From assembly GCA_050012795.1 (NCBI GenBank), contig JBEKGM010000006.1, positions 27,626-91,625 of the forward strand: DNA of 64,000 nt. The letters run 5' to 3'. The stretch comes from Candidatus Bathyarchaeia archaeon (GTDB taxonomy: Archaea; Thermoproteota; Bathyarchaeia; 40CM-2-53-6). The notes beneath the pieces are model-generated. The model saw only the letters and a program-made list of their open reading frames with translations. It had not been told where the DNA came from and searched no databases. Below, piece after piece: positions 21,934 to 57,121 of this stretch (its first letter is position 1; each line of letters opens with the position of its first letter). A program made the position numbers and the translations under genes.

Positions 21934-23151
21934 CTAACTTAGACGACTCCTACGCCAAGACTGAATCATCGTAAGGAAATTATCCCAGTTCGTGTCCTCA
22001 TACAGCGTGTCTATTGCTCCGAGAATGAATCCGCTCTTGGGCGCGAGGATTCTGATCGAGTCCTCCACCGCCTTCGTGACCCCCTGTTTGCTTCCGGTGA
22101 GTGTGACCGCGGAGTTGACGCCTCCCCAGATGCAGATCTGATCACCAATTACTCCTTTGATTTCCTTCAAATCCGCGTTGCCTTGCACTGGGTCGACTCC
22201 GTACAGTATGTCGACACCCATTTCTTTGAAAATATTCAAGAAGGGTTTGAATCCTGTCGTCATTATGTAGCAATACTTTGCACCTGCACGATGAGCGAGG
22301 TCCACCTCCTTCTTTATCCTTGGGGCGAGAAATGTTCTGTAGAGTTTTGGTGACCAGTAATATTCGTACCAGCCCCGATGCACGACCATATCGCAACCTC
22401 CGAATTGCGTAATCAACCGGATGGATTGCAAGCTCCAGGTTGAGATCACGTCAAGCAATCTGTGTAATAATTCAGGGTTCCTAGCTGCCATGATGATCGA
22501 GTTCTCTAATCCACAAAGCCAGCCTAGTGCATCACCCAGGAAGATGCTGTCGCCATCAATCCACTCAGGGCTAGCTAACGTGTCTCCGCATTCGACGAGA
22601 ACTTTGTTCTTCCTCGCGAAGTCTGTGACTTGCGTCACATGCTCTTCAAACCTGCGAAGCTGAACCTCGTTAAGTTCTGAGAAAAGGCAGGACAACGCTT
22701 CAACATCGTCTATTGTCTCCACTAGGTACTTTTTCGACCTGCCTCTTGGAACCACGTAATCAGTGAATATGGGGATGTTATCTCCATGAGGCCAGTCGGC
22801 GGTTTGGCGTACAATTTGTTTGAGCGTACCTTTAGGCGTCTTATATTCCTGGAACAGGAAAGCTTGTGATTCTCCTGGCAACACTTCTTTCCGACGCGTG
22901 ATCTCAACTTCTGAGGAGAAGGATCTTGGAATATCGAACCCTACGGTGTCGTCTAGTCCTAATCTGGTAGTCTTTGTTACTCGTTCAAACTGGTCTCTCC
23001 ATCCGTCTTTTTGGTTGGATAAGAATCGACGTTGCCAAAATTTCTGGCAGAATGGAACATGATCTGTTTCCGAATGATTGATTGCGGATAAGAGCCTCTC
23101 CTTCGACGAGAGATTATCAGTCATTCGCTGGCCCCGTGGTTGGCAATTCAC
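21934..23151 (-). CDS. Uroporphyrinogen-decarboxylase (URO-D) family protein, function unknown
   Basis: 405 aa with a URO-D/MtaA-like N-terminus (SSKERLLSAINHSETDHVPF) and overall pattern. Last gene of the SBP1-led minus-strand gene string. Confidence 0.55.
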   Translation of the reverse strand: MNCQPRGQRMTDNLSSKERLLSAINHSETDHVPFCQKFWQRRFLSNQKDGWRDQFERVTKTTRLGLDDTVGFDIPRSFSSEVEITRRKEVLPGESQAFLFQEYKTPKGTLKQIVRQTADWPHGDNIPIFTDYVVPRGRSKKYLVETIDDVEALSCLFSELNEVQLRRFEEHVTQVTDFARKNKVLVECGDTLASPEWIDGDSIFLGDALGWLCGLENSIIMAARNPELLHRLLDVISTWSLQSIRLITQFGGCDMVVHRGWYEYYWSPKLYRTFLAPRIKKEVDLAHRAGAKYCYIMTTGFKPFLNIFKEMGVDILYGVDPVQGNADLKEIKGVIGDQICIWGGVNSAVTLTGSKQGVTKAVEDSIRILAPKSGFILGAIDTLYEDTNWDNFLTMIQSWRRSRLS

Positions 23152-23171
23152 ATTTGGAAGGTGGAGCTTCC

Positions 23172-23987
23172 TTAAATTCCGAAGACGCTTCTGAGTGATT
23201 CACGTCCGGTCGCGGCGACTTTCTCTGGTTCCTCTTCCCAATATGAGGGTCTCAGCAATTCAAGGCTCAGAAAACCGTCATAGTGTAACCTAGCTAGGTC
23301 GGTCGCAAGCTGTTTGAGATCAATCACTCCTTCTCCCGGGTAGAGGCGATTCACGTCACGCAAGATGGATCGATCGCCGGGTTCGGAGTCATTCACATGA
23401 ACTATGAAGATTCTATCTCTGTCGGTCTGATTCATCTCACTCAATTGTGATCCGCTTAGGTAAAGATGAAATGAATCAAGCACTAGACCAACATTCTTCC
23501 TATTCACAGTCTTTACTATCTCTACAGCATCTCTCAGGTTGTTCACGCTACACTCTTTCATTCCCAAGAATTCCAGGCCAAGGTTGATGTCTTCACCGCA
23601 GGCATCGGCCAGTTGGGCGAGGGATTCTGCGGTCTTAGCATGTACCTCATCAGCGGTCATTCCGTTTTGCGTTGGCGACGGAACTGGTTCCAAGAGGTTG
23701 CAGTCTAATTCTCGGGCGGCCTGTGCGAGTTTTCGGGTGCGTTCGCAGATTTCTGAGAACTGGTCTTTGTTGAGTAGGTTGAAGTTTTCCGGGCCCATAA
23801 TGCTTGCGACTGTAAGCTCATTTGCTTTTATCTGGTCGGCCAAAGCTTTCAGCGAGTTGCGAGCGATTAGCGGTTCCACTTTGTCTTGTGCTAGTTCGAC
23901 TGCTACGTATCCCGTCTTCTTGGCGATTGGGATGAAGGACTCTGTAACAGTGCTCTTAAGAGTGTCCTGGTTGAGGCACGGTTTCAT
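23172..23987 (-). CDS. Xylose-isomerase-like TIM-barrel protein (sugar phosphate isomerase/epimerase family)
   Basis: 271 aa with the family pattern ...GYVAVEL..., LVLDSFHLYLSG and IFIVHVNDS...PGEGVIDL. Confidence 0.75.
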   Translation of the reverse strand: MKPCLNQDTLKSTVTESFIPIAKKTGYVAVELAQDKVEPLIARNSLKALADQIKANELTVASIMGPENFNLLNKDQFSEICERTRKLAQAARELDCNLLEPVPSPTQNGMTADEVHAKTAESLAQLADACGEDINLGLEFLGMKECSVNNLRDAVEIVKTVNRKNVGLVLDSFHLYLSGSQLSEMNQTDRDRIFIVHVNDSEPGDRSILRDVNRLYPGEGVIDLKQLATDLARLHYDGFLSLELLRPSYWEEEPEKVAATGRESLRSVFGI

Positions 23988-23996: not shown

Positions 23997-24989
23997 TCAA
24001 CTCCTCAACGGCAGTTGGACTGGTTTTCCAGTCTGGTTCGCTCTGTAGCATGCTTCGATTATCTCGATTGTCTTGTAGCCGTCTTCGACTGTCACGGGCG
24101 GATTCTTCTTACTGACCAACGCGTCGACGAACAGTTGGTCCTCTTCTTCTACACCCCATGTACTAGTCATGGGGAGGTAGTGGAATTCTTCGGTTTGAGT
24201 TGGCAGGTCTAGGCCCAGCGTGTAGCTGATGCGATTCAGCTCCTCAGTAATTGCGCAGCAATGATCGCCAATCACTTCAACTCGTTCGAACGGAATTATC
24301 CATGAGGCGTGTCCTGAAGAGAAGATGGGAACTTCTAAGCCGGACTGATGCTTCAGCGTTATCCAGAAATCGTTGAGCATGGCGGGGTATACGTTTGCTT
24401 CAGCTCGGCATCTCACTTCTGCGACTTCGCCGAATAGCCATCTCGCCATGTCCAGCATGTGAAGTGTTGTGTCGTATAGGTGGCCTCCAGAAATCTTGGG
24501 GTCAGCGCCCCACGCAGGACGTTGTAGCTCTCCGGTGACCATTTTAATTATTACCATGTACGGCTTGATCCTGGATGAGATCAATTCTTTTAGTTTCTTA
24601 TAGACGGGCGAGAAGCGGCGGTTATGTCCAACTTGAAACACAACCCCAGTCGTCTTCACCATATCCACCAATTCTCGGGCATGATCTAGGTTGATTACCA
24701 TGGGTTTTTCGCAGAAGATGTTGAGCCGCTTCGATAGCGCGTAGTTCAGAGTCTCGTAGTGGTAAACATTCGGGGTTACCAAGTATATTGCGTCGAGCTG
24801 TTCCGTATCGATAAGGTCGTGGTAATCCTTGTACTTCGCGCAATTGTACCTCTTAGAAGTATATTCTGCAATTGATTCCACTACGTCTGCCACACCCGCG
24901 ATTCGGACCCGTTTGTCTCTGGAGAGGACTGACAAGTGGTTTTGGGCTTGTGAACCAAGCCCTATGACTCCTACGTTTAATGTCAACAT
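23997..24989 (-). CDS. Gfo/Idh/MocA family NAD(P)-dependent oxidoreductase
   Basis: N-terminal Rossmann segment (LNVGVIGLGSQAQNH) and the EKP motif (IFCEKPM). Confidence 0.8.
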   Translation of the reverse strand: MLTLNVGVIGLGSQAQNHLSVLSRDKRVRIAGVADVVESIAEYTSKRYNCAKYKDYHDLIDTEQLDAIYLVTPNVYHYETLNYALSKRLNIFCEKPMVINLDHARELVDMVKTTGVVFQVGHNRRFSPVYKKLKELISSRIKPYMVIIKMVTGELQRPAWGADPKISGGHLYDTTLHMLDMARWLFGEVAEVRCRAEANVYPAMLNDFWITLKHQSGLEVPIFSSGHASWIIPFERVEVIGDHCCAITEELNRISYTLGLDLPTQTEEFHYLPMTSTWGVEEEDQLFVDALVSKKNPPVTVEDGYKTIEIIEACYRANQTGKPVQLPLRS

Positions 24990-25170: not shown

Positions 25171-26337
25171 TTAATATGCCAAATTTTCCTTCATGATTCT
25201 CGCGTATTCTCTGTACTGGTCTAATGGGATGTTTGTTGGGACGTCGTGATCCAGTCCTGGGATGTAGCCTCCCATCTCCTTGAGTATTGGCACCTTCGAT
25301 TCAACCTCCTGTCTCACCACGTGTTCTCCTTGATCCAGTTTCGCCTTGTCCAAGTTCCCGACGAGAAACAGTTTAGTTCCGTACTTCTTTCTCAGGGTTA
25401 GAGCGTCCATTCCTGCATTAACTTCAAGGGGCCAGTGGCCGGTGATTCCTGCTTCGACTGCTAGGTCAAGGATAGCATTAGTGTTTCCGTCGCTGTCCAT
25501 CATTATTCTATCTATCTTATTCTTCTTGAGAAAGCTCGTGACCTTTTTGTAGTGAGGAAGGAGAAATTCCTTGTAGAGTTTAGGCGAAATATTTGGCCCA
25601 TGCCTTTCTGCGAGGTCTTCCCACCAGAATACTGCGTCAATCTTGTCTTTCAGTGACTCGATGGCGTCCCGATAGGTCGCTATTGTGAAGTATTCCCAGT
25701 ACTCTGCCATCCGCTGGATGAGTTCAGGGTTCCTGTAGAACATTTCAACGAACGTTGGTATGCCCATTAGTTGGGCTCCGAAACCGTAGAAACCGCTCAT
25801 GGCTAGCGAAGTGTATCCATCTTGATATTCTTCTAAGGCAAACAGGTAGTCATCTTTCTGCCAGTCTTTTGGGTATCTGGCAGGTGTATTAGGGTTCAGG
25901 AGTTTTGTGTATGCCTCCCAACTTTGCCGATCCTTTACTGGAAATTCCAGGAAACGGGGCATGCTGTAAGTTGGATTTTCTACCGTGATGTTCTTCCTGA
26001 CGATCTGACCGGCCCCATTTCGGTAGTCAACATAGCCTGAAGCTCGATTCAGGATCCTTGACTTGAATCTGGGTATCGGCCCGCAGTCTATGGTCAGGAT
26101 TAGGCCCTCTGCTGCCACGCTGCCGAAGTACGAGTGAAGGTTGAAACCCGCAAGCGTTGGTCCTTGAAGAAGAAGGCCCTGTGGCAGGTTTGTGTCCTCA
26201 ACTATTGCCACCTTATCGATAGGCAAGCCTTCTCTAAGCCACCTGATGATAATCCCGTCATTGTACGATTCCATCCAGGGCAGCATGTCGGGTTTCCTGA
26301 AGTTCATGACGGCCTTCACCCTCTCTCTGGCTGTCAT
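25171..26337 (-). CDS. Uroporphyrinogen-decarboxylase (URO-D) family protein, function unknown
   Basis: 388 aa. N-terminus MTARERVKAVMNFRKPDMLPW and ISPKLYKEFLLPHYKKV resemble the URO-D/MtaA family. The protein has only one Cys, so an MtaA-type His/Cys/Cys zinc site is impossible. Confidence 0.55.
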   Translation of the reverse strand: MTARERVKAVMNFRKPDMLPWMESYNDGIIIRWLREGLPIDKVAIVEDTNLPQGLLLQGPTLAGFNLHSYFGSVAAEGLILTIDCGPIPRFKSRILNRASGYVDYRNGAGQIVRKNITVENPTYSMPRFLEFPVKDRQSWEAYTKLLNPNTPARYPKDWQKDDYLFALEEYQDGYTSLAMSGFYGFGAQLMGIPTFVEMFYRNPELIQRMAEYWEYFTIATYRDAIESLKDKIDAVFWWEDLAERHGPNISPKLYKEFLLPHYKKVTSFLKKNKIDRIMMDSDGNTNAILDLAVEAGITGHWPLEVNAGMDALTLRKKYGTKLFLVGNLDKAKLDQGEHVVRQEVESKVPILKEMGGYIPGLDHDVPTNIPLDQYREYARIMKENLAY

Positions 26338-26401: not shown

Positions 26402-27418
26402 TCATTTCGTCTTCATTTCGTGATGAATTGTTATTGCTCGCTTTTTCTCAGCAGATTCACGCGCTGCTAACGCAACCTGAAGGGCGGCATGACCTTCTTC
26501 AACCGAGACAGGTGAATTTCCACCTTTTGAGACATAGTCACAGAATCCCTGGATTTCGCTTCTGTAGGCTTCCGCGAACCTTTCGATGAACCATGGACAC
26601 GGCTGCTTCGTGGCCCCCTGTCCTCTCCAGAGTTCCATCGACTCCTTTCTCAGATTATCAACATGGACCGCACCCTGGTCGCCCAGAACTTCGGTTCTTA
26701 GGTCGTACCCGTATCTAGAAGTCCGGCTTCCCTCAACGACGCCCAAACCGCCGTTTCTAAATCTCAAGACGGCGACGGCATTGTCAAAGTCGCCATATTT
26801 CGCGAACTGAGGATAAACTAGTGTTGTTCCCGTCGCCCAGACCTGCTCCACTTCACTGTTCATGAACCAGAGTGCTATGTCGATGTCGTGTATGCATTCA
26901 TCTACGAAAATGCCTCCGCTTCGTCGAATATACTCCTCTGGAGGAGGCTGTGGGTCGCGCGCGCAAGTTTTGACCAAGATCGGTTTGCCGATCCTGCCCT
27001 TCGCAATCATCTTCTTCGCCTTGCTGTATCCTAAATCAAACCGTCTGTTGAAACCAAGTTGGAACTTGACTCGAGATCGTCGGACTGCTGAAACAATCTT
27101 ATCTGCCTGATTCAAATTGAGTGCTATCGGTTTTTCAAGGAGCATAGGTACATTTCTCTCAGAAGCTAATTCTACATGTTCCGTATGCATTTGGGTGGGC
27201 GTCGCGATAACTACACCGTCCAGTGATTCCTCTCTCAGCATCTTGATTGGGGTCTCATACATGCGGCATTCCAATTTTTTCGCTGTGGCGCTTGCTAACT
27301 TCTTTATCGGATCAGCAACAGCGATCAACTCAGCTTTCTCTGTGCTTGCGCGGATGTTGGCTGCATGTAAGTATCCAATACGTCCCACTCCCCAGACTCC
27401 AATTCCAAGCCGTCTCAA
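26402..27418 (-). CDS. Gfo/Idh/MocA family oxidoreductase (inositol-2-dehydrogenase-like)
   Basis: LGIGVWGVGRIGYLHA Rossmann segment and LLEKPIA motif. 338 aa. Confidence 0.8.
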   Translation of the reverse strand: MRRLGIGVWGVGRIGYLHAANIRASTEKAELIAVADPIKKLASATAKKLECRMYETPIKMLREESLDGVVIATPTQMHTEHVELASERNVPMLLEKPIALNLNQADKIVSAVRRSRVKFQLGFNRRFDLGYSKAKKMIAKGRIGKPILVKTCARDPQPPPEEYIRRSGGIFVDECIHDIDIALWFMNSEVEQVWATGTTLVYPQFAKYGDFDNAVAVLRFRNGGLGVVEGSRTSRYGYDLRTEVLGDQGAVHVDNLRKESMELWRGQGATKQPCPWFIERFAEAYRSEIQGFCDYVSKGGNSPVSVEEGHAALQVALAARESAEKKRAITIHHEMKTK

Positions 27419-27494: not shown

Positions 27495-27526
27495 AGAAAA
27501 ATGGCTAGGAGTGACCGATCCTAGCC
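27495..27526 (-). terminator. Stem-loop plus T-tract overlapping the SBP1 stop codon
   Basis: GGCTAGGA (27503-27510) pairs with TCCTAGCC (27519-27526) across an 8-nt loop. On the coding (minus) strand it is followed by ATTTTTCTG. Confidence 0.4.
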
Positions 27527-29425
27527 GTTCACGAATGTGACTGTGTTGAAGATTACCGTTGAGCTGATCGCTGTGAATATGGGGTCAAGCAGCGCGCTTT
27601 TGACGACGCCCTTTTGCCAGGCTACTGATCCCCCTCCGAATACGAGTTTGACGGTGCCCAACCATATGTATGGTGCGTCATTGTACATTTGTAGCTGCGC
27701 TGCGGTACACACTTGTTTAATGTAATTTACGTCAGCGGTGGCTGTCCAAGCGTCAACGCATTTCTGAACTGTAGGGTTTCCGTAGATTGCCCAGTCATTT
27801 GCAGGAGTATTGTAGTTCGCGAACAATATCCAAGCGTCTGCCGGAGTAGCTGCCCCTGGCGCAAATGTTCCAGTTCCGAACCATGATAGTTGAGCGACCT
27901 GCTGAGCCACCGCAAGTCCAGCCTGGTAGGAGCTCGCACCAGCAATATACGGCAACGTGTATTGACTACCAGGGGTCACCTCAATGGTCACCGTAATTCC
28001 GATTTGACCCAAGTCTGCCTGAACTACTTGCGCAGCTGAAATACAGTACGTGCAGCCTGCAACAACTCTGAATTCGAGCGGCGCCATCGTTGCCACGTTC
28101 ACTCCGGACTCTTTCAGGTACTGCTGGGCCAGAGTCAAATTGTACTGGTAGGGCGGTAGGTTGCCGAGGTCATACCAATCCTTCTGCGCAGGATATTCAG
28201 GTCCTATCATTGGACCCAACTGGCCGAAGAACACTCTTTGCGAGATATCGGTTACGTTTACGGCGTGAACGATCGCTTGCCTGAAAGCGGTTATGTTGGT
28301 TGGGTACCGATGCGTATTCATGGCCATTCCAACAAACACCATCGAGGCGTCCGGCATGACGGAGTATGAATACTTGTCAGGATTCGCCAAGACCAGCGGC
28401 CAATTCTGTGATTGAATTGCCGATATCTGCGCCGCGCCCGTAGATAGATCAGTATATCTAGCTACGTCATCTGGTTTTACGTTGATGACAACGTTCTTGA
28501 CATGACCCGGGTCCAAATACGGGTTCGCTTGAATATCAGCGGGGGCCAGACTCTTTCCCCAGTAGTTTGGATTTTGTGTGAATCTAACGTATGACCCTTC
28601 CACGACCGTAGTTACGGTATAGGGGCCGGTGCCGGGCATGGGATGTTGGTTAAAGTTCGTGTTGTACCCAGCAGGTGTACCGAAACCACCGTTTTGCAGA
28701 ACGTACTGTGTGTCGAACAGTAGCCCGACATAGGCAACTAGGATGTGCGGCAACCAACGAAACGGTGCCTTCAGTTGGAACACTAGCTGGTTTGGGCCGG
28801 TAACGTATATCGGCCACGAACTATCGCTCATAATCTTCATCAGATCTGGTGTCGGGTTGATGAGACCACTCTGCGTCATCAACGCAAGCGTTGCTGGACC
28901 GAACGAGACGTTTGTGAAGTTGAATACGTTGTATGCATTCAGGAAGCTTGAGCTGTTTCCGGACAGATAGTAGAGTCCGTACATTTGACCCCAAACTTGG
29001 TATGCGTTGAACGGGTCACCATTCGAGAAGGTCACGTTCTGTCTAAGATTGAAAGTGTAGGTTGTTCCGTCTGGTGACACTGTCCAGCTACTCGCTAGCA
29101 CAGGAAGAATCTGAATATCGCCAGTCTGGTACAACAAGCTTCCGTTCAGGGTGACCAGCGGCTGGTATACTGTGTAGGCACACCAGTTTGGATAAGGTAT
29201 TTCTCCAAGTGAACTGAGCTGGTTCAGATCACCGCTCGGCCAGAACGCGTCATCTATTGTAAGAGTTTCAGGGGCGGCTGACGCCGAAGAAGATGTCATA
29301 GTACTACTAATGACCGAAGAGGGCTGGCTCGGTTGTGATACGAAATATAGCCCTACCCCGGCTACAACAATAATAATTAAAACCAAAAGTGCGGCAGTAG
29401 TCCTAGCTATCGCTTTAGTGTTCAT
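27521..29425 (-). CDS. ABC transporter substrate-binding protein, family 5 (Opp/Dpp/Nik type), paralogue 1
   Basis: N-terminal TM anchor plus a Ser-rich linker, then a family-5 SBP body. Closely similar to the ORFs at 37550 and 41492. Start moved to MNTKAIARTT (ATG 29425-29423), because a conserved TATA-containing motif lies inside the longer track ORF. Confidence 0.8.
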   Translation of the reverse strand: MNTKAIARTTAALLVLIIIVVAGVGLYFVSQPSQPSSVISSTMTSSSASAAPETLTIDDAFWPSGDLNQLSSLGEIPYPNWCAYTVYQPLVTLNGSLLYQTGDIQILPVLASSWTVSPDGTTYTFNLRQNVTFSNGDPFNAYQVWGQMYGLYYLSGNSSSFLNAYNVFNFTNVSFGPATLALMTQSGLINPTPDLMKIMSDSSWPIYVTGPNQLVFQLKAPFRWLPHILVAYVGLLFDTQYVLQNGGFGTPAGYNTNFNQHPMPGTGPYTVTTVVEGSYVRFTQNPNYWGKSLAPADIQANPYLDPGHVKNVVINVKPDDVARYTDLSTGAAQISAIQSQNWPLVLANPDKYSYSVMPDASMVFVGMAMNTHRYPTNITAFRQAIVHAVNVTDISQRVFFGQLGPMIGPEYPAQKDWYDLGNLPPYQYNLTLAQQYLKESGVNVATMAPLEFRVVAGCTYCISAAQVVQADLGQIGITVTIEVTPGSQYTLPYIAGASSYQAGLAVAQQVAQLSWFGTGTFAPGAATPADAWILFANYNTPANDWAIYGNPTVQKCVDAWTATADVNYIKQVCTAAQLQMYNDAPYIWLGTVKLVFGGGSVAWQKGVVKSALLDPIFTAISSTVIFNTVTFVNG

Positions 29426-29460
29426 ATAGATACAGGTCCACCTGGACGTGTGACGCGGAA

Positions 29461-29479
29461 AAAATATAAGCTTTCGCAC
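29461..29479 (-). promoter_or_regulatory. Putative BRE/TATA promoter of SBP1
   Basis: The minus strand reads GTGCGAAAGCTTATATTTT, with the TATA box about 38 nt upstream of the ATG. The motif is shared with the SBP2 and SBP3 upstream regions. Confidence 0.4.
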
Positions 29480-29758
29480 GGGTTAGTTGCGTTCACCACG
29501 TACTTTTGTCAAATTCCAAGGCGGTTGAACAAATTTGAAAGGAAGGGCCCCCGTATCGTCAGCAAATCTGCTCTAGTGACTTGAACTGAGCTGTTCTAAG
29601 AGGATTCACTCCACACTGTTTGGATACGTGAAAATCAGGAGTTATATGGCCCATCATCGACGTCGTGATGCTCACCAAGAGGTACCTATGAGTTTGCCCC
29701 TAACTCATGTTAGGCACGAAATTCTATTCTAGAAGCATCGCTCACAGGTAGCGACCTT

Positions 29759-31117: not shown

Positions 31118-31266
31118 TTGACTTCAAGCAGAGGGGTTAACGCCCGCTTAAAAGCCTCATCAATTCTCGTGATTAAACCGGTTGACTGGGAAACTCACTT
31201 GGGAGTTACGATTAGCATAAACTCGAACACGATGATGGTCGTCAATCATCCAAAGAGTATTAAGAA

Positions 31267-32727: not shown

Positions 32728-32758
32728 TAATGATACGTAAGAGGCTCCAAATAGGAAG

Positions 32759-36424: not shown

Positions 36425-36433
36425 GATTGAATG

Positions 36434-39451: not shown

Positions 39452-39473
39452 GGAAAGAGGCTTGGTAATTTCG

Positions 39474-39490
39474 CATATAACACTTTGCAG
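39474..39490 (-). promoter_or_regulatory. Putative BRE/TATA promoter of the SBP2-ABC-corrinoid operon
   Basis: The minus strand reads CTGCAAAGTGTTATATG. The 13-nt CTGCAAAGTGTTA is identical to the SBP3 upstream motif. The TATA box sits about 23 nt from the ATG, implying a leaderless or very short leader transcript. Confidence 0.45.
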
Positions 39491-39734
39491 CACACCTTGA
39501 AGCTTCGGAAAGATTTTACTTGTGAGACGGCAAAAAGTGAATGTAGAGAAACAATATTAAGATCTATTTGAACGACCCGCTTAGCCGTTTAATAACTGCA
39601 CCCAAATCAGATGGCTGAGTTCAGCTTACGTGCATTAGCCCTTGCGTAAGTCAACAAACCTTCCCAAGCATAGACACTAGAAGTTTCCTGAAATTTGCAA
39701 AACGATTAGAATTCCTGATTACAGGTCGAGTTGT

Positions 39735-51515: not shown

Positions 51516-52553
51516 TCACTTTAGGACGGCCGTTAGTCTGTCTAACGCTTTTCCATGTACGCTTGTGATATGTGACATTGCTTGCTCCATGCTGTAATTC
51601 TGGTGAACGATCCTACTGACCGCGTTTGCAATGGCCGAAGGGTCTTCTCGGCCTGGAAAGAGGATGTTTCTTCCAACTAACGCTCCCCTCACGTTGCTGC
51701 CTGCAGCTAATCCCTTAGTGAACTCCCTTAGAACGGGTGCTGGGTCGCCTAATGCTTCTCCGCCCAGCATGAGAATTGGGCAGGTAGTAGCTTTCGCAAC
51801 CGTGTCGAACCCATCGCAATATGGAATCTTCAGCCAGATTCCTCTAGAGGAGTCGCCAAGCGCGGTTGCGACACCAATAGCCTTGATTAGCCCCTCTGCA
51901 GTTTTCACCATCTTGTACCCGTTAGCAGCGTGTTCCACCGTGAAGGCTTCGAGGAAGGCGGGAATAGAGTACTTGTTGAGTTCAGTGACTGCTCTCGCGC
52001 AGGATTCAATAGTGCGAAGCGTACGGTCGTCCTTCAGATCTAGCCGGAACATGAATTTCGCGCCATCTAATCTAAGATGATTAATTGATTCTGCCGTAAA
52101 TGAAGTAAATCGATCATCCATCTCGAACGAGCTGCCGCTTAGTCCACCACGGTTCATGCAGCCTATCAATACCTTGTTGTCCAAGAAGCTCTCACCGCCT
52201 CGGTCAACGAAGAGCTGATCAACTATTAACAAATCCTCGATTATGTCAGTCGTTCCCATCACCCCGTCGAATTCAGGACTTAAAATCACTCGCAGTGCAC
52301 GCCCAAGGTATTCCCGTCTGTTCCCCATCAGTAACGGGTCACTTCCAGACCTCGTTATTCCTCTAGCAGGATGATCGCAGGCGAGGATTGCGAGCTTACC
52401 GTCAGAGGTGAGTTTCTGTCGTCGCTTTCTACACATTGCAGACTTTTCGATTATTCCAGGGTTATCTACTCTAACCTCGGTAATCGTTCTGAATATTCTC
52501 TCCGGGAAGAAGACTTGAAGGTCAAATTCATAGCTAGACGTGAGTGAACTCAT
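51516..52553 (-). CDS. Class I aldolase-like TIM-barrel protein (DeoC/FbaB(DhnA)/LacD superfamily)
   Basis: 345 aa with LAILACDH, DGAKFMFRL (candidate Schiff-base Lys) and a C-terminal GALVGRNILF typical of this superfamily. Substrate unknown. Confidence 0.5.
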   Translation of the reverse strand: MSSLTSSYEFDLQVFFPERIFRTITEVRVDNPGIIEKSAMCRKRRQKLTSDGKLAILACDHPARGITRSGSDPLLMGNRREYLGRALRVILSPEFDGVMGTTDIIEDLLIVDQLFVDRGGESFLDNKVLIGCMNRGGLSGSSFEMDDRFTSFTAESINHLRLDGAKFMFRLDLKDDRTLRTIESCARAVTELNKYSIPAFLEAFTVEHAANGYKMVKTAEGLIKAIGVATALGDSSRGIWLKIPYCDGFDTVAKATTCPILMLGGEALGDPAPVLREFTKGLAAGSNVRGALVGRNILFPGREDPSAIANAVSRIVHQNYSMEQAMSHITSVHGKALDRLTAVLK

Positions 52554-52625: not shown

Positions 52626-53591
52626 TCAACAAGATGCAATATTCACTCGACCGTGTAGCTTGGCGATTCCGTTGGATATTGTCTTCGCACGTTCCTCCAC
52701 TTCCTTCCGGGTGCCGAAATAGGCAGGCCCAACCTTCTCCACCACAAACGATGCAACTGCTGAACCGATCGCCGCTGACCAGGCGAGGTCCCCTGTTTTA
52801 CTCCAAGTTACGAGGAACGCTCCAACAAGAGCATCGCCGGCTCCCGTGGGATCCCGGACTCTAGTTTTGTATGCGGGCACTGCATAGACTCCGTGTTCTT
52901 TTGACCATACCGTTGTTCCTGCTCTCCCTTTAGTGATGAGAACGATTTCGGGGCCAAGCGAGCGAAGTCTGAGAGACGTCCCCGTCCCAATTCCAATCAA
53001 ACCTGAAGCTTCATCCTCAGACACTTTCAGAACGTCAAGATGTTTCAGGAGGGCCCGATTCGACCACTTCGACCTCTGAACCCGGCCGTCTCGAAGAACG
53101 TGACGCAAGTATCCCTGCGGGTCCAAAGAGGTTACTGCATTTCGATTCGTGAGTGAGATTGCAAGCGAGAGAGGAATTTCATTCAATATCGGGCCCATAT
53201 GTAGTGCGGAGCAGGCGGGAAAGTCGGAAAGGTCACGGCGACTTAGGGAAGCGCATTTCGAGGCTGCCCACATGAACCTGTTGCCGTCTACGTACTTTAT
53301 CTTGAATGCAGTCGTTCGCGAATTGCATTCTCGAACTTGATCGATGACTACTCCCCGGGAGCCCAGCCAGAGGAGTCTATCTTTACCATAATCCCGTCCC
53401 ACCTTGCTTCCTACAACAACAGACGCATTGAGTGCGCGAGCACCTAGACTCGCATAGACGCACGGGCTTCCCATTTGCGGAGCATAATGCTTGCCTCCGC
53501 GTGAGATGTAATCCAGCGTAAGGTGTCCGATTACTCCCAAATCGTACTTGCGATGAGACCCAGACTGATCTGCCAGCACACGCTCTGACAT
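52626..53591 (-). CDS. PfkB/ribokinase-family sugar(-acid) kinase
   Basis: N-terminal GG-type motif region and the C-terminal anion-hole motif DPTGAGDA. Confidence 0.8.
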   Translation of the reverse strand: MSERVLADQSGSHRKYDLGVIGHLTLDYISRGGKHYAPQMGSPCVYASLGARALNASVVVGSKVGRDYGKDRLLWLGSRGVVIDQVRECNSRTTAFKIKYVDGNRFMWAASKCASLSRRDLSDFPACSALHMGPILNEIPLSLAISLTNRNAVTSLDPQGYLRHVLRDGRVQRSKWSNRALLKHLDVLKVSEDEASGLIGIGTGTSLRLRSLGPEIVLITKGRAGTTVWSKEHGVYAVPAYKTRVRDPTGAGDALVGAFLVTWSKTGDLAWSAAIGSAVASFVVEKVGPAYFGTRKEVEERAKTISNGIAKLHGRVNIASC

Positions 53592-53754: not shown

Positions 53755-54582
53755 ATGCGTTTTTCCTTCGTAGTCTCCAGTGGACTTGGGTACAGGATTC
53801 AAGACCTCTTTCATAGTGAATCATCCTTCAAAGAATTCGAGCAAGCTCTGCGAACCATCAAGGAACATGGGTTCGAGGGCGTTGAGCTTAACATCAGCTT
53901 CGACGACCAGAGCAAGCTTAGTCGAATCAAGGCGGCAATAGATACCTCCGGACTGAAACTGGCAGCCGTTGGAACCGGCATGGTGTACGTTAGGGAACGA
54001 CTCTCTTTAACCGATACCGATCCCGAGAAACGTTCAAAGGCGCTTGCAATTGTGAAAAACCTGATCCGCTTTGCTTCTCTCGAGCAGGCAGTACTAATAA
54101 TTGGAATGGTGAGAGGTTCTCCTTCACAACCCGACAAGGCAACTGACGATTACCTGCGTGAAGGCCTGAGAGAATGCGATAGAGAAGCGAAACAGAACAG
54201 GGTACGAATCGCGTTAGAGGCCATAAATAGGTATGAGACAAGTCTCCTCAACACAGCAGCTGACGCGTCCCACATAATTGATCAAGAGAAACTCACCGCC
54301 ACTGGTCTTCTCCTAGATACATTCCACATGAATATTGAAGAACAATCGATCGCCGATTCAATTCGAAACAACGCAACTAGAATAGTGCACTTCCACATAG
54401 CTGACAGCGACCGTTGGCCTCCGGGTCACGGACACCTGGAGATAGCTACATTGCTACGCATCCTAGAGGACTCAGGGTACGAAGGGTGGGTATCGACGGA
54501 AGCTCTACCAAACCCAAACAACTCACTAGCTGTAGCTCACACAGCCGAGTTTCTGAAAAGTCATAAACTCATGCGACCCTGA
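53755..54582 (+). CDS. Xylose-isomerase-like TIM-barrel protein
   Basis: 275 aa with GFEGVEL, ALEAINRYET, LLLDTFHMNIEE and VHFHIADS...PGHGHLE. Confidence 0.75.
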   Translation: MRFSFVVSSGLGYRIQDLFHSESSFKEFEQALRTIKEHGFEGVELNISFDDQSKLSRIKAAIDTSGLKLAAVGTGMVYVRERLSLTDTDPEKRSKALAIVKNLIRFASLEQAVLIIGMVRGSPSQPDKATDDYLREGLRECDREAKQNRVRIALEAINRYETSLLNTAADASHIIDQEKLTATGLLLDTFHMNIEEQSIADSIRNNATRIVHFHIADSDRWPPGHGHLEIATLLRILEDSGYEGWVSTEALPNPNNSLAVAHTAEFLKSHKLMRP

Positions 54583-54670: not shown

Positions 54671-55915
54671 ATGGTCACCAAAAGCTCACTGGCATTGTAC
54701 GGCGGAAAACCCGTGAGGCCGGAACCGCTCCCTGTGATGCATCCGGGCTCCTCTCAAATTGACGATGAAGAGATAAACGCAGTTCTTGAAGTTCTCAAAT
54801 CTCAATCACTCTACCGATTCTACGGACCAAAATTCATGAACATCACTGGCAAGTTTGAGAAAGAGTTCAGGGAGTATGTTGGAGTCAAATATGCTCTGGC
54901 AGTATCCTCCGGAACCGCGGCATTACACTGTACACTCGTAGGTCTCGGCGTAGGCCACGGAGACGAGGTGATCCTGCCAACTTACGGGTGGGTTGCTTGC
55001 CCCGACGCAATCGTTGCAAGCGGCGCAACGCCCGTACTGGCGAACGTTGATGAATCATTGACACTCGACCCCGCAGATGTTGAAGCAAAGATCACGAACC
55101 GTACCAAGGCCATTCTGGCAGTGCACATTAGAGGAGTCCCCTGCGACCTCGACGCGTTATCCAAGATTGCGAAAAAGTACCAAGTGCTTCTGGTCGAAGA
55201 CGTGGCGCAATGCGGCGGAGGAACATACCATGGAAAGAAACTTGGCTCAATAGGGGATGCCGGATCCTTCAGTTTCCAACTCAACAAGATGATTTCAGCA
55301 GGCGAAGGCGGCGCAGTGGCCACGAACGACCAAACAACGTACGAACGGGCAGTAATGTTCGCTGACGTCGGCACACCCTACCGTGCATTTTCGGAGAAGA
55401 ACTTCAACTCCACAATCAAACCGTTTCCTGGAGTCAACTATAGACAGAATGAAATTTCCTCCGCGATACTCCGAGTACAGCTCAAGAAGATGGATGCAGT
55501 TGTTTCGAAAATCAGAGCCAACAAGGCAGTGATCAAGAAGGGCATGTCGGACATTAGCGGCGTGAAATTCAGGAAGCTACCGGACCCTCAAGGTGAAGTG
55601 GCTGTAGGTCTCGTGTTCTTTGTCGAAACTCCGGAAAAGGCAAGAGCGTTCAGGGACGCGTTAAGAGCTGAGAACATTCGAACCGAGAGCGGCGCCTACC
55701 CCGGCGTCCTATACGACCCAGCAGTGACTGACGGTCACGTATTCCTTCATTGGGGTCACATAATCAAAGGCCTAGAACGCGTAAGAGACAAGTATGCGCA
55801 GTCCATCAACCTCATGAGTCGAGCAGTACACCTTGACATTAGCCCTCTACTGAGCGAAAGCGACCTTAAGGACGTCGACACCGCCTTACACAAAGTTGCT
55901 AGCGTAGTATTGTAG
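54671..55915 (+). CDS. DegT/DnrJ/EryC1/StrS-family PLP aminotransferase (sugar/cyclitol ketone aminotransferase type)
   Basis: 414 aa with LALYGGKPVR..., SSGTAALH and FSFQLNKMISAGEGG (PLP-Lys context). Confidence 0.75.
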   Translation: MVTKSSLALYGGKPVRPEPLPVMHPGSSQIDDEEINAVLEVLKSQSLYRFYGPKFMNITGKFEKEFREYVGVKYALAVSSGTAALHCTLVGLGVGHGDEVILPTYGWVACPDAIVASGATPVLANVDESLTLDPADVEAKITNRTKAILAVHIRGVPCDLDALSKIAKKYQVLLVEDVAQCGGGTYHGKKLGSIGDAGSFSFQLNKMISAGEGGAVATNDQTTYERAVMFADVGTPYRAFSEKNFNSTIKPFPGVNYRQNEISSAILRVQLKKMDAVVSKIRANKAVIKKGMSDISGVKFRKLPDPQGEVAVGLVFFVETPEKARAFRDALRAENIRTESGAYPGVLYDPAVTDGHVFLHWGHIIKGLERVRDKYAQSINLMSRAVHLDISPLLSESDLKDVDTALHKVASVVL

Positions 55916-55948
55916 GCGGAATCACCGACAGAATTCATACCCGTGTAA

Positions 55949-57121
55949 TCAGCGTGAGCCCTGTCTAATCGTAGAGATGATCGGTTTACCCTCGGCGAAT
56001 CGGCTTAATCGAAATTCCCTAATATCCACTCCCGTAGTTTTCCCGCGAAGTATGAATTCTGATACGAGTCTTCCCGTTACTGGGGAAAATCTGAAGCCGT
56101 GACCGCTCATGCCCACGGCACAATAGAGCCCTTTGATTCCTGGTATTTCATCCAGAATTGGGTGCCCATCAGGACTTACATCATACGGTCCAGAGTAGCC
56201 ACCTCGACTTATCGCTGCTCCCAAGGCTGGAAATCGATGCACCACTTTCTGAGAATATTTCAGAACTGTATCAGAATCTATGCCTTCATTATAGCTATCG
56301 GGATTCATAGGTGAACCGGGGCTCTCGATCTCGCCAACCAGCGTTTGCTCTCCCTCCGGTTTCATGTAAATATCTGCCACGAAATCGTCGGTTATCATAT
56401 GTGCCTTGCCGAAGTCGGTTGGCCTCTTGAAGAGGCAGACCTGTTTACGTGTAGGCTCTATCGGAATGTTCACGTTTAACTTGGCAAGGAGTTCTCTTGC
56501 CCAAACGTTAGCCGCGCAGACTACTTTACTCGCTTTAACTGTTCCTTGATTGGTTTCCACACCGCTTACTTGTCCGTTCTCAGTCATGATTCGGTTAACT
56601 TGCACTCCTGTGAGAATTTGCGCGCCATTCTTCTCCGCCTGACGAGCGAAAGCGTTGGTGGTCTTGACTGGGTCAGCATAGCCTGAGGTGGGCTCATAGA
56701 TTCCAATCCTTACATCGTCAGCGAAAATCCTGGGTTCAAGTTCTTTCAATTCCTGAGACGATAGTAGTTGCGAGTGAGCTCCCGTTTCATTTTGGAGATG
56801 AACCGCTTCCTCGATTCTTGCCACTTGTGCAGGGCCTGCTAATCCCATCCAACCTGTCTGTGTAAATCCGGAATCCCCGCCAACGGCGTCGGCGAAGTTA
56901 TGGAAGATTCCTAAACTCTCAACAAGCATCTTCGCTAAAGGCTTGCTGACGTTCCAGACCCCCATGTTCACGATAGCGCTGGATTTACCCGTGGCTCCCC
57001 AGGCGAGGTATCCCTTTTCTAAGAGCACAACGCCGGAACTACCCATCTTCGTCAAGTGATGAGCTATGCTTGTCCCAACGCAGCCACCGCCAATAATCAC
57101 GGTTTCAGCTTTGCTTAGCAT
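55949..57121 (-). CDS. FAD-dependent oxidoreductase (DAO family; sarcosine/glycine/D-amino-acid oxidase-like)
   Basis: N-terminal dinucleotide fold VIIGGGCVGTSIAHHL and a C-terminal GHGFRFSP typical of the DAO family. Confidence 0.75.
   Translation of the reverse strand: MLSKAETVIIGGGCVGTSIAHHLTKMGSSGVVLLEKGYLAWGATGKSSAIVNMGVWNVSKPLAKMLVESLGIFHNFADAVGGDSGFTQTGWMGLAGPAQVARIEEAVHLQNETGAHSQLLSSQELKELEPRIFADDVRIGIYEPTSGYADPVKTTNAFARQAEKNGAQILTGVQVNRIMTENGQVSGVETNQGTVKASKVVCAANVWARELLAKLNVNIPIEPTRKQVCLFKRPTDFGKAHMITDDFVADIYMKPEGEQTLVGEIESPGSPMNPDSYNEGIDSDTVLKYSQKVVHRFPALGAAISRGGYSGPYDVSPDGHPILDEIPGIKGLYCAVGMSGHGFRFSPVTGRLVSEFILRGKTTGVDIREFRLSRFAEGKPIISTIRQGSR

Follow-up and report, generated by a model that had tools for sequence, protein, structure and literature searches.

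Mostly known genes for anaerobic inositol breakdown, predicted in a peat-type Bathyarchaeia genome, with interwoven B12-type methyl-transfer genes

The window (the whole 64-kb stretch of DNA that was analysed) contains an island of 29 consecutive ORFs at 21934–57121. Pfam scans recovered every family listed in an initial annotation of this DNA, each at the place given there, and found no regulator or unrelated gene among the 29 ORFs. The inventory comprises four Gfo/Idh/MocA dehydrogenases, four AP_endonuc_2 TIM barrels, two Zn-ADHs, one SDR, one creatininase-family protein, two URO-D-like proteins, a PFK, a Cgl0159-like aldolase fold and a PfkB kinase, together with three amine-type genes (a class-III aminotransferase, a DegT and a DAO), an MttB–corrinoid methyl-transfer pair, and one Opp-type ABC importer with three SBP_bac_5 binding proteins. 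Island genes lie on the minus strand unless marked plus, and each start codon is the one that yields the longest ORF; in metagenome gene calls the aminotransferase AT3 has 404 aa and the binding protein SBP5_a 634 aa. Pairwise identities among paralogues are 24–37% for the Gfo/Idh/MocA dehydrogenases, 27–34% for the TIM barrels and 64–77% for the binding proteins; by this measure the island paralogues are old, the binding proteins excepted. A second methyl-transfer system, an MtmB-like protein with a corrinoid protein, is present in the window at 6337–8502, 15 kb from the island.

Three enzymes exceed curated NCBIfam cutoffs for inositol oxidation: IolG, an inositol 2-dehydrogenase (26402–27418; TIGR04380, 358.9 bits, cutoff 355); IolM, a scyllo-inosose 3-dehydrogenase with about 35 additional N-terminal residues relative to the model (47911–49176; NF041097, 518 bits, cutoff 450; 89% identical to its orthologue in L108, a locus from another lineage); and IolN, a 3-dehydro-scyllo-inosose hydrolase (45536–46645; NF041098, 318 bits, cutoff 245), whose homologues at 70–77% identity occur across many phyla and carry the same NCBI name. 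The longer of the two Zn-ADHs is thus IolM, and the "creatininase" is IolN; amine-related or unknown functions for these two were rejected on the strength of these scores and of their company with inositol genes in L108, which has no methyltransferase nearby. An IolO-like 5-keto-L-gluconate epimerase (53755–54582, plus) scores 239 bits over the full length of NF041099, short of the cutoff of 300, and among solved structures it lies nearest to T. maritima TM_0416 (139 bits; runner-up 77). TIM_a (23172–23987; AP_endonuc_2) is a candidate IolI-like inosose isomerase, its closest solved structure being B. subtilis IolI (1i60; 135 bits, full length). It is separated by 9 bp from GFO_a (23997–24989), a divergent inositol-type dehydrogenase with GFO_IDH_MocA domains that scores 161 bits against the IolG model, below the cutoff of 355; GFO_a, TIM_a and the URO-D-like gene UROD_a are joined by gaps of 9–20 bp.

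Other oxidative genes resemble this set at lower scores. A second IolG-like dehydrogenase (49220–50281, plus; TIGR04380, 308 bits, below the cutoff of 355) has a 69% orthologue in L108, and the levoglucosan-dehydrogenase-like GFO_lgdh, between IolM and IolN (46697–47857; NF052479, 378 bits, below the cutoff of 650), has one at 80%. TIM_c (43541–44347, plus; AP_endonuc_2) is accompanied by ZnADH_a (44441–45484, plus; ADH_N/ADH_zinc_N), which is IolM-like at 230 bits, below the cutoff of 450, and 83% identical to its L108 orthologue. Downstream of the binding protein SBP5_c, the SDR (39735–40592; adh_short) overlaps by 1 bp with TIM_b (40592–41401; AP_endonuc_2), which shares 34% identity with the IolI-like TIM_a.

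The genes for a putative lower pathway, assigned by Pfam, are a PPi-type PFK (50294–51511; PRK14072 PPi-PFK subfamily, 509 bits, cutoff 273), a Cgl0159-like class-I aldolase fold (51516–52553), for which the closest solved structure is 3fok (Cgl0159), and the PfkB kinase (52626–53591). The PFK–Cgl0159 pair recurs at 71–74% identity in L108 and at 66–70% in L048/L106. The DAO-family FAD oxidoreductase (55949–57121; PF01266, 232 bits) is MSOX/MTOX-like, scores 150 bits against the N-methyl-Trp oxidase model (below the cutoff of 257), and has a 59% orthologue amid the inositol genes of L108. It had been counted among the genes for amine removal; since it co-travels with IolM and IolN in L108, where no aminotransferase or methyltransferase lies within 10 kb of the inositol locus, we reject it as evidence for that function and place it with the inositol set. 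The DegT-family aminotransferase (54671–55915, plus; PF01041, 280 bits) lies 88 bp downstream of the IolO-like gene on the same strand, and passes no NCBIfam cutoff. Its best solved relative is a Kdo8N transaminase (212 bits), with scyllo-inositol and 2-deoxy-scyllo-inosose aminotransferases at 146–169 bits; a special affinity to the scyllo-inosose aminotransferases, which the initial annotation named as members of this family, is not seen. Of 41 loci with UROD_a homologues, 9 also hold DegT homologues (36–41% identity).

Overall, the reading of the locus as a cyclitol or inositol catabolic island is borne out by IolG, IolM and IolN and by the IolO-like and IolI-like TIM barrels. The moc or IolE-type signature proposed alongside it is not: the route is neither moc-type nor the classical IolE/IolD/IolB one, and the island core appears to be the known Thermotoga-type oxidative inositol pathway. 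IolM, IolN and the IolO-like enzyme are present, whereas UxaA and UxaB, which Thermotoga requires downstream of D-tagaturonate, are absent from the 64-kb window. For T. maritima, the pathway encoded by TM0411-0416 has been described together with its kinase of the ribokinase family (PMC5931981).

Uptake would depend on the Opp-type ABC importer, comprising two ATPases and two permeases (33491–37456; ABC_tran with oligo_HPY, BPD_transp_1). SBP5_b (37550–39493; SBP_bac_5) heads its operon and has a 74% orthologue beside the inositol genes of L108; SBP5_a (27521–29479; SBP_bac_5) is 77% identical to SBP5_b, and SBP5_c (41492–43390; SBP_bac_5) is 64–65% identical to both. Transporters homologous to this importer are also found alongside UROD_a homologues in L053, L058, L060 and L022. 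The clustering of these genes exceeds chance, given the old paralogues, the ten island genes clustered again in L108 (among them orthologues of IolM, IolN, IolG, ZnADH_a, GFO_lgdh, DAO, PFK, Cgl0159 and SBP5), and the synteny of the island's left half in relatives, with proteins 74–98% identical; synteny at that distance may be simple inheritance. The relatives' contigs are partial: L026 and L032 carry the ABC ATPase, IolG, GFO_a, TIM_a and UROD_a on a single strand, and in L030 GFO_a directly follows the ABC ATPase. The same theme recurs with divergent parts in L105/L106, which hold MttB (35% identical), corrinoid proteins (36–46%), five URO-D genes, PFK (70%) and Cgl0159 (66%). Most of the homologues derive from metagenome assemblies of JGI, ENA and Logan.

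The block of SBP5_a, AT3, MttB and corrinoid protein (27521–33415) looks like an inserted cassette. MttB (31267–32727, plus; PF06253, 308 bits; 486 aa) is an uninterrupted ORF and so of the non-pyrrolysine type; this MT1 belongs to a separate clade, with members at least 58% identical, seen in Bathyarchaeia, and its closest solved relatives are the glycine betaine methyltransferases 9yce and 2qne (204 bits). The corrinoid protein (32759–33415; B12-binding_2 and B12-binding; MtgC/MtbC-like, 183–200 bits) is encoded convergently with MttB and 75 bp downstream of ABC_F, an ATPase gene of the ABC operon, with no T-run between. AT3, a HemL-like class-III aminotransferase (29759–31117; Aminotran_3), scores 434 bits against the hemL equivalog, below the cutoff of 527; its closest solved structures are GSA aminomutases (338 bits), and it appears to be a partner of MttB, its orthologue adjoining MttB in L017, L020 and L021. 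The convergent MttB–corrinoid pair is kept down to 62–65% identity, at which level its neighbours are APC permeases, LarA, a second MttB–corrinoid pair and an aminotransferase, with no inositol genes. Three contigs from close relatives, all partial, have no cassette at this site, and there ABC_F is joined to IolG (L026, 9.0 kb; L032, 5.4 kb) or to GFO_a (L030, 4.6 kb); given the short contigs, this absence applies to this site alone. The MttB–corrinoid pair, to which the initial annotation ascribed the demethylation, is on present comparisons the least stably linked part of the island. The proposal that methyl transfer is tied to the cyclitol genes thus stands in part: the operons contain UROD_a and UROD_b, set among IolG, GFO and IolI-like genes, as well as the corrinoid gene, while the linkage of the MttB–corrinoid pair to the sugar genes breaks down among relatives. 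Scans of the window found no reductive activase.

UROD_a (21934–23151; Pfam URO-D over the C-terminal half alone) closes the cyclitol operon and is a candidate substrate-specific corrinoid methyltransferase (MT1). Its family profile places MtaA (4ay7) first (E 1.2e-12), the chloromethane MT1 CdmB next, and HemE weaker; its N-terminus aligns with the "D-K-V-P" segment of MtaA, and the HemE "MRQAGR" stretch aligns to non-basic consensus residues. The MtaA Zn ligands are not conserved in the alignment. An AlphaFold2 model (pLDDT 89.7) has the URO-D fold and matches HemE and MtaA equally well, so that the fold does not tell a methyltransferase from a decarboxylase. In many archaeal lineages the family's members lie in carbohydrate loci: Gfo/Idh/MocA genes are present in 15 of the 41 loci, 9 of 106 neighbours that carried no other label are GH4, and Opp-type ABC transporters turn up repeatedly. 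Homologues stand beside corrinoid genes in at least five arrangements (L034, L042/L046, L047/L105, L073 and the window) and beside MttB paralogues in L053, L068, L073, L076/77, L084/86, L104 and L106; no corrinoid gene is within reach in about 36 of the 41 loci (those of at least 6 kb). UROD_b (25171–26337; Pfam URO-D; weak MtaA/CmuA matches) is a candidate MT2, transferring methyl from corrinoid to pterin. MtaA is its top profile match (1.1e-10), SDGN replaces the HICGN motif, and the MtaA Zn ligands are missing. Orthologues at 54–55% identity occur in the MttB loci L007, L008 and L012, directly adjoining the corrinoid gene in L007 and L008, the two neighbourhoods examined; the relative L017 lacks one.

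Our leading interpretation, held tentatively at a little under even odds, is a catabolic regulon for plant or soil cyclitols in which a corrinoid methyl-transfer module is built in and functionally coupled. It is also possible, if rather unlikely, that the island joins two unrelated neighbours: an ordinary Thermotoga-type inositol regulon, and a methylotrophy cassette for quaternary amines of betaine-type osmolytes, with MttB as MT1, the corrinoid protein, URO-D-like MT2s, and AT3 or DAO to process the amine once it is demethylated. The two would adjoin because of a common "plant osmolyte" theme or by chance, and some adjacency is expected by chance in genomes rich in methyltransferase genes, as the second, methylamine-type system in the window illustrates. 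Every non-Pyl MttB enzyme characterised so far takes its methyl group from quaternary amines (PMC8604678), and the glycine betaine affinities of MttB, its Iol-free surroundings at 62–65% identity, the cassette-free sites of close relatives, the L108 Iol cluster without any methyltransferase, and the MSOX/MTOX-like DAO all point the same way. However, UROD_a is kept in the ABC–Iol operon even in contigs that lack MttB and the corrinoid gene, which is unexpected for an amine MT2; the closeness of the cassette's binding protein to that of the cyclitol operon suggests that the ligand resembles a cyclitol and is no small betaine; a sugar-type ABC operon ends with the corrinoid gene; and other lineages again have GH4, GFO and DegT genes beside those for URO-D, MttB and corrinoid proteins.

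It is improbable that the URO-D-like proteins are instead corrinoid-independent sugar or cyclitol enzymes, for example decarboxylases of beta-keto acids produced by the GFO dehydrogenases, with MttB and the corrinoid protein an independent insertion. The equal fold scores of HemE decarboxylases and MtaA, the missing Zn ligands, and the scarcity of nearby corrinoid genes among family members, whose steadiest neighbours are GH4, GFO, DegT, SIS and ABC transporters, would be in keeping with it; but profiles of both families favour MtaA (1e-12 and 1e-10) over HemE (1e-4 to 1e-7), nothing in the family consensus corresponds to the HemE arginine motif, at least six arrangements have corrinoid and MttB genes immediately adjacent, and corrinoid genes adjoin the UROD_b orthologues of L007 and L008. 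More doubtful still, and to our minds very unlikely, is catabolism of aminated and O-methylated, rhizopine-like cyclitols (scyllo-inosamine, 3-O-methyl-scyllo-inosamine), with the amine removed by DegT or AT3 and MttB–corrinoid replacing MocDEF. The position of DegT behind the IolO-like gene, the inositol-type aminotransferases among its solved relatives, its homologues in UROD_a loci, and the company of AT3 and an SBP paralogue beside MttB are compatible with this; yet DegT is nearer to the Kdo8N transaminase and perosamine synthases and passes no curated cutoff, MttB enzymes are known for N-methyl quaternary amines only and not for O-methyl groups, the DAO belongs to an L108 inositol set that has no aminotransferase, and rhizopines are known only from certain legume nodules, the homologues here being mostly metagenomic.

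Under the coupled cyclitol regulon, three related binding proteins would feed the single importer; IolG-type dehydrogenases and IolI-like TIM barrels would, from their family assignments, convert inositol stereoisomers to scyllo-inosose; and IolM, IolN and the IolO-like enzyme would carry this through 3-dehydro-scyllo-inosose and 5-keto-L-gluconate to D-tagaturonate, with phosphorylation and cleavage by the PfkB kinase, PPi-PFK and Cgl0159-like aldolase. UROD_a, which travels with uptake and oxidation genes and is read as a cyclitol methyltransferase, would be the substrate-specific enzyme, taking the methyl from a methylated cyclitol or its oxidised derivative and handing it to the Co(I) corrinoid protein; UROD_b would then move it to a pterin (H4MPT), from which it would enter the Wood–Ljungdahl pathway. 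As a methyltransferase for cyclitols or sugars, UROD_a is a stronger candidate than the MttB–corrinoid pair; plausible substrates are O-methyl-chiro- or myo-inositols, for example pinitol, which would fit the IolI-like neighbour. To our knowledge, no corrinoid enzyme demethylates an aliphatic methyl ether. The cassette could supply a second donor, an N-methyl quaternary amine whose carrier resembles the cyclitol ligand and whose demethylated product would be transaminated. Placing a substrate-specific MT1 gene apart from shared corrinoid and MT2 genes would follow the logic of Eubacterium limosum, where MT1 genes are separate from those for the shared corrinoid protein, MT2 and activase (PMC8604678).

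The island hints at, without proving, an undescribed O2-free demethylation of plant cyclitols or sugars. That the combination is undescribed agrees with our literature search, which found no paper linking corrinoids with pinitol or methylated sugars, or on corrinoid demethylation of cyclitols or sugars. Weighing against the coupled reading, aerobic bacteria use pinitol via iolT, iolG and iolE, with no demethylase (PMC9788770). Elsewhere in the window, where ARAGORN reports no tRNA, a 111-nt match to a 71-position model at 59783–59893 indicates an intron-bearing tRNA, which lends weaker support to the Bathyarchaeia assignment than do the source names of homologues, the intron being deduced from the difference in length.

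The island at 21934-57121 comprises 29 consecutive genes by ORF listing and Pfam scans, and all of the families named in the initial annotation were found at matching coordinates; the 29 include neither a regulator nor an unrelated gene in the Pfam scans. The host belongs to the Bathyarchaeia, a name borne by homologs of MttB and of the URO-D-like proteins in NCBI and GTDB records. They are arranged as short co-directional runs with small gaps. On the minus strand, from 31117 to 21934, AT3 (a HemL-like class III aminotransferase) is followed by SBP5_a (an SBP_bac_5 binding protein), IolG, UROD_b (a URO-D-like protein), GFO_a (a Gfo/Idh/MocA dehydrogenase), TIM_a (an AP_endonuc_2 TIM barrel), and UROD_a (also URO-D-like). 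MttB stands alone on the plus strand, beside a minus-strand run of the binding protein SBP5_b, two permeases, two ATPases, and a corrinoid protein. Beyond these lie SBP5_c-TIM_b-SDR (minus), TIM_c-ZnADH_a (plus), IolM-GFO-IolN (minus), a second IolG-like gene (plus), PfkB-Cgl0159-like-PFK (minus), TIM_d-DegT (plus), and DAO (minus). Several metagenome contigs carry exact or near-exact copies of this locus.

Family assignments were checked against NCBIfam equivalog models with curated cutoffs, which three of the genes pass: IolG (26402-27418), if marginally (TIGR04380, 358.9 bits against a cutoff of 355); IolM, a scyllo-inosose 3-dehydrogenase of the Zn-ADH type (47911-49176; NF041097, 518 bits against 450); and IolN, a 3-dehydro-scyllo-inosose hydrolase with a creatininase fold (45536-46645; NF041098, 318 bits against 245), whose homologs bear the same name at NCBI. 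The last two had previously been described as one of two Zn-ADHs (it is the longer of them) and a creatininase-family hydrolase; they are the signature enzymes of the oxidative inositol route of Thermotoga maritima. Of the inositol and rhizopine (moc) signature claimed for this island, the inositol half holds; the core is IolM and IolN rather than moc. The second IolG copy (49220-50281) reaches 308 bits on TIGR04380 (cutoff 355), and TIM_d (53755-54582) aligns over its full length with the model for IolO, a 5-keto-L-gluconate epimerase, at 239 bits (cutoff 300); its top solved relative by far is TM_0416 (139 bits, against 77 for the next). TIM_a (23172-23987) most resembles the inosose isomerase IolI of Bacillus subtilis (1i60; 135 bits, full length), and TIM_b and TIM_c are its paralogs at 27-34% identity.

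The TM0411-0416 operon of T. maritima encodes an oxidative inositol route that includes a ribokinase-family kinase (PMC5931981). The island resembles it in having IolG, IolM, and IolN at equivalog cutoffs, an IolO-like gene with TM_0416 as its best solved relative, and both a PfkB/ribokinase-family kinase and an ABC importer. It differs in its archaeal host, its three paralogous Opp-type binding proteins, its extra GFO, IolI-like TIM, SDR, and Zn-ADH paralogs, and its inclusion of a DAO-family flavoprotein and of a pyrophosphate-type phosphofructokinase (PPi-PFK) paired with a Cgl0159-like aldolase; unlike the Thermotoga cluster, it also embeds URO-D-like proteins, a corrinoid protein, and MttB, and the window lacks UxaA and UxaB. 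For the onward route through D-tagaturonate (UxaB, UxaA, KdgK, KdgA), no protein of the mannitol dehydrogenase or altronate dehydratase family was found among the window ORFs scanned. PfkB, PPi-PFK, and the Cgl0159-like protein (a class I aldolase fold, 51516-52553) are present where UxaA and UxaB are missing, and may constitute a lower pathway of phosphorylation and cleavage. IolG, the IolI-like TIM barrel, and PfkB with the Cgl0159-like protein also recall the classical iol pathway of Bacillus and Corynebacterium (IolG, IolI, IolE, IolD, IolB, IolC, IolJ). In contrast to that pathway, Pfam found no ThDP-dependent IolD domain and no KduI/IolB-family domain within 21934-57121, and the island's TIM barrels, at 36-44 bits on TIGR04379, fall far under the IolE cutoff of 290. 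We take the Corynebacterium glutamicum Cgl0159 gene to sit in the iol cluster beside iolC; no paper on Cgl0159 itself was found.

Which of the accessory genes belong with this core is indicated by a related inositol locus, L108, whose IolN is 81% identical to that of the window. Within 20 kb it carries orthologs of IolM (89%), ZnADH_a (83%), the levoglucosan-dehydrogenase-like GFO (80%), an SBP5 protein (74-75%), PPi-PFK (74%), the Cgl0159-like protein (71%), the second IolG-like protein (69%), IolG (65%), and DAO (59%), along with the start of an Opp-type permease gene; URO-D, MttB, corrinoid, and aminotransferase genes are absent from the locus. Because L108 clusters them with Iol genes, we assign DAO and the PFK/Cgl0159-like pair to the inositol regulon in these archaea, and DAO is therefore not to be read as an amine-removal gene. 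A reading of the creatininase-family protein and DAO as creatinine or sarcosine catabolism is rejected, the hydrolase being IolN and DAO travelling with inositol genes, and with both reassigned the amine-removal part of the earlier model is weak. At 12671-14715 of L108 the GFO gene is broken into two ORFs, as is a second gene of the creatininase family, reflecting either frameshifts (pseudogenes) or assembly errors.

The inositol core is widespread and already annotated. IolN has 2411 cluster representatives at E <= 1e-40, with 70-77% identity in Aigarchaeota, Hadarchaeum, Bipolaricaulota, Dehalococcoidia, Atribacteria, Aerophobetes, and Thermosediminibacter, a degree of conservation that suggests strong constraint, frequent horizontal transfer of the IolM/IolN module, or both. 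No published description of inositol catabolism in Bathyarchaeia was found. On a conservative reading, our results place the Thermotoga-type IolG/M/N/O pathway in this group and nominate PPi-PFK, the Cgl0159-like aldolase, and the DAO-family flavoprotein as candidate new members of its regulon.

MttB matches PF06253 at 308 bits (profile positions 32-490) as an uninterrupted ORF of 486 aa without an in-frame amber codon, and scores 390 bits on the pyrrolysine-type model TIGR02369, under its cutoff of 525. Its adjoining corrinoid protein (32759-33415) has B12-binding_2 and B12-binding domains, and relatives as distant as 62% identity retain the convergent pair. A tight clade with identities of at least 58% includes the window's MttB; the next homologs are 45-47% identical, and those after them at most 38%. 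A scan of a genome collection with the MttB alignment returned six loci, which were used for taxonomy. In relatives at 85-89%, IolG, SBP5_a, AT3, MttB, and the corrinoid gene are held together; a relative at 75% keeps AT3-MttB-corrinoid with an SBP of another type. At 62-65%, only the convergent MttB-corrinoid pair remains of this cassette, with no Iol genes around it. In three partial contigs from close relatives, with UROD_a 82-84% identical to the window's, an ABC ATPase gene is directly followed by IolG-GFO_a-TIM_a-UROD_a (L026, L032) or GFO_a-TIM_a-UROD_a (L030). Because the block from SBP5_a to the corrinoid gene (27521-33415) is missing between the ABC ATPase and the cyclitol genes there, it was probably inserted, as a piece of about 6 kb, into an older ABC-Iol-UROD_a operon; these contigs are short (4.6-9.0 kb), and absence was judged at that site only.

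Characterized non-pyrrolysine MttB enzymes all use quaternary amines (PMC8604678), and the nearest solved relatives of the window's MttB are glycine betaine methyltransferases. Distant orthologs are accompanied by an APC permease, and the window's MttB by a cyclitol-type SBP paralog and AT3. One point would favor a cyclitol-like carrier for the MttB substrate: SBP5_a shares 77% identity with the SBP of the operon itself, and no permease genes accompany it in the cassette. AT3 (29759-31117) may be a housekeeping HemL, but it falls under the hemL equivalog cutoff and stays with MttB in three lineages. At L007-L010, the loci of the orthologs at 62-65%, the gene order is APC permease, MttB, corrinoid, corrinoid, second MttB, LarA-like, cupin, class III aminotransferase, and an OMP-decarboxylase-fold protein, followed in L007 and L008 by a UROD_b ortholog and a third corrinoid protein; L007 has a KduI/IolB-family gene and an SDR immediately upstream.

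UROD_a (21934-23151) and UROD_b (25171-26337) gave almost no matches in a solved-structure search with single sequences, and family profiles were used instead. The top match of the UROD_a profile is the methylcobalamin:CoM methyltransferase MtaA (1.2e-12), followed by CdmB, which from its name and the abstract of its description we take to be the substrate-specific methyltransferase (MT1) of the chloromethane system (PMC13222342). UROD_b follows the same pattern, with MtaA on top (1.1e-10); HemE is weaker in both searches (1e-4 to 1e-7), and its arginine motif faces non-basic consensus residues of the UROD_a family. In the profile alignments, non-ligand residues take the place of the MtaA zinc site, His-x-Cys...Cys (i/t and G in UROD_a, SDGN in UROD_b), and because these zinc ligands, which activate a thiol acceptor, are missing, we do not regard either protein as a CoM-methylating MT2, that is, a methyl-corrinoid-to-acceptor methyltransferase. 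Pterin or O-methyl chemistry may still be compatible with the loss of the site. An AlphaFold2 model of UROD_a (pLDDT 89.7) has the URO-D fold, and a fold search with it ranks HemE and MtaA equally (TM 0.57-0.60), a result that cannot separate methyltransferase from decarboxylase. At 50% identity the family divides into about 280 clusters (E <= 1e-30); its named members come from Bathyarchaeia, other Thermoproteota, and Brockarchaeota, and none among the database matches bears a functional name.

UROD_a lies 20 bp downstream of the IolI-like TIM_a and stays there in relatives without the cassette. On its other side, 19 bp away and convergent with it, are two ABC exporter-type genes (ABC_membrane and ABC_tran; 18206-21914, plus strand), an adjacency kept in all close relatives (L017, L025, L026, L031, L033, L098). 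A scan with a 16-sequence alignment yielded 80 metagenome loci, annotated by tblastn, phmmer, and Pfam, in which the UROD_a family is found in carbohydrate loci. GH4 glycosidase genes are its commonest neighbors (L023, L073, L077, and L084 among them), and in L023 (8685-11191) the GH4 and URO-D genes overlap by 4 bp. GFO dehydrogenases occur in 15 of the 41 loci of at least 6 kb, and homologs of the window's Opp-type ABC transporter recur, as do TIM barrels, Amidohydro_2, ThuA, and a fucosidase. A DegT-SIS-UROD-UROD-GFO cluster recurs in eight loci (including L081, L087-L089, L095, L099, and L100) and resembles a pathway for amino sugars in which two URO-D-like proteins take part, with no corrinoid gene within reach. 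Its order is PfkB, Amidohydro_2, a 143-aa ORF, DegT, SIS (opposite strand), the UROD_a homolog, a second URO-D, GFO (opposite strand), and a sugar ABC transporter, to which L088 adds an FGGY kinase. Corrinoid genes directly adjoin UROD_a homologs in L034, L042/L046, L047/L105, and L073, and MttB paralogs (22-35% identity) are neighbors in L053, L068, L073, L076/77, L084/86, L104, and L106; in most loci of the family, no corrinoid gene was seen nearby. In L084, one strand carries URO-D, DUF6785 (probably a membrane protein), GH4, MttB, and the UROD_a homolog in a row, and L105/L106 contain an Opp-type ABC transporter together with five URO-D genes, two corrinoid genes, MttB, NagB-like, DUF4432, SBP5, PPi-PFK, and Cgl0159-like genes.

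In acetogens, MT1 genes sit with the genes for their substrate; other loci encode the corrinoid protein, MT2, and activase, which are shared (PMC8604678). By analogy, UROD_a, which travels with uptake and oxidation genes, is best read as an MT1. UROD_b would then be best read as an MT2 acting on a pterin, because its orthologs adjoin corrinoid genes in MttB clusters; a comparable protein is the bathyarchaeial "MtgA," proposed to methylate H4MPT (PMC10989822, PMC11697101). The IolI-like neighbor of UROD_a would indicate D-chiro-inositol chemistry. B. subtilis IolI joins D-chiro-inositol to scyllo-inosose. Co(I) does not readily take a methyl group from a free aliphatic methyl ether; speculatively, the flanking dehydrogenases could first form a keto or enol-ether intermediate with a better leaving group. 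Pinitol is 3-O-methyl-D-chiro-inositol (PMC9788770). Tentatively, and with the odds rather against it, the UROD_a family could consist of corrinoid-dependent demethylases of non-aromatic carbohydrates (O-methyl-inositols such as pinitol here, GH4-released methylated glycosides elsewhere) that pass methyl groups to the Wood-Ljungdahl pathway.

Against demethylation stand the use of pinitol by aerobic bacteria via iolT, iolG, and iolE, without a demethylase (PMC9788770), and the lack of a nearby corrinoid gene in most loci of the UROD_a family. Methyltransferase genes are also dense in these genomes, which counts against taking the adjacency of UROD_a homologs to corrinoid and MttB genes as coupling. 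No activating enzyme of the RamA/RACE type was found among the window ORFs scanned; Yu et al. likewise found none in their Bathyarchaeon (PMC10989822). The case for functional coupling of the inositol island to methyl transfer is one of gene context, and is built on UROD_a and the corrinoid gene rather than MttB. Overall, the reading given in the initial annotation is partly supported: this is a cyclitol island of a kind known from Thermotoga, enlarged by new accessory genes and with methyl-transfer genes woven into it, and the amine-removal component is weak. The annotation's remark that such a combination was not known agrees with our literature search, which found no corrinoid-dependent demethylation of cyclitols or sugars and no single paper joining pinitol, or methylated sugars, with corrinoids.

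Known corrinoid systems (MttB/MttC/MtbA of methanogens; MtgB, MtpB, MtcB, and MtyB of acetogens; the Mto and Odm O-demethylases; CdmBCA) combine an MT1, a corrinoid protein, an MT2, and an activase. The island shares with them an MT1 of the MttB family, whose gene converges with that of a cognate-type corrinoid protein, and URO-D-superfamily profiles that match MtaA and CdmB best. Unlike them, its URO-D-like proteins lack the His-x-Cys...Cys zinc site, it has no activase gene, its genes lie within sugar/cyclitol operons rather than a dedicated methylotrophy cluster, and the presumed donor would be a non-aromatic polyol ether or sugar-like amine, for which we know of no precedent as a corrinoid methyl donor. 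With the rhizobial moc system for rhizopines (mocABC together with the MocDEF oxygenase) it shares, at the level of pathway logic, a binding protein, a GFO dehydrogenase, a TIM barrel, and separate demethylation, but its core is IolM/IolN and the island contains no MocDEF-type oxygenase, Rieske, or ferredoxin genes. The bathyarchaeial lignin "MtgB" was considered as an MttB/TIM-barrel homolog and rejected, being a protein of about 300 aa without homology to known MT1 enzymes (PMC10989822); a luciferase-like identity, considered from its primer-encoded N-terminus (MKFGMFIY), was dropped, as two Bac_luciferase neighbors in L022 and L010 start differently. For L022-type loci, Amadori/fructosamine catabolism (FrlB/C/D-like SIS, TIM, PfkB) was set aside on weak model matches in the window.

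Plants produce methylated cyclitols and methylated cell-wall sugars in abundance, and we found no paper on the O2-free removal of their methyl groups. If correct, the proposed scheme would be the first in which enzymes demethylate aliphatic methyl ethers of sugars or cyclitols anaerobically, and it would give an archaeal group that is among the most abundant in peat and sediments a new source of carbon and energy. It would widen the substrates of B12-dependent methylotrophy past amines, methanol, methyl sulfides, chloromethane, and aromatic ethers, and would help to explain the abundance of unassigned methyltransferase genes in Bathyarchaeia. The binding proteins, UROD_a, the corrinoid protein, and MttB would then form a directly testable set.

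Outside the island, a second methyl-transfer set occupies 5246-8502: an MtmB-family protein of the non-pyrrolysine type with an unbroken reading frame (6337-7704, minus), a corrinoid protein of divergent sequence (7786-8502, plus), and the window's sole Rieske/VanA_C oxygenase-like protein (5246-6211, minus), an O2-dependent type of demethylase fold that is odd for a presumed anaerobe. We know of no described substrate for a non-pyrrolysine MtmB homolog. On the right flank, ARAGORN in bacterial mode reported no tRNA anywhere in the window, and Rfam matched one at 59783-59893 (minus); its 111 nt, against a model of 71 positions, suggest that it carries an intron. Farther right, among ORFs without a Pfam match, lies a HEPN_AbiV-domain protein (62150-62662, plus) of a defense-associated family.
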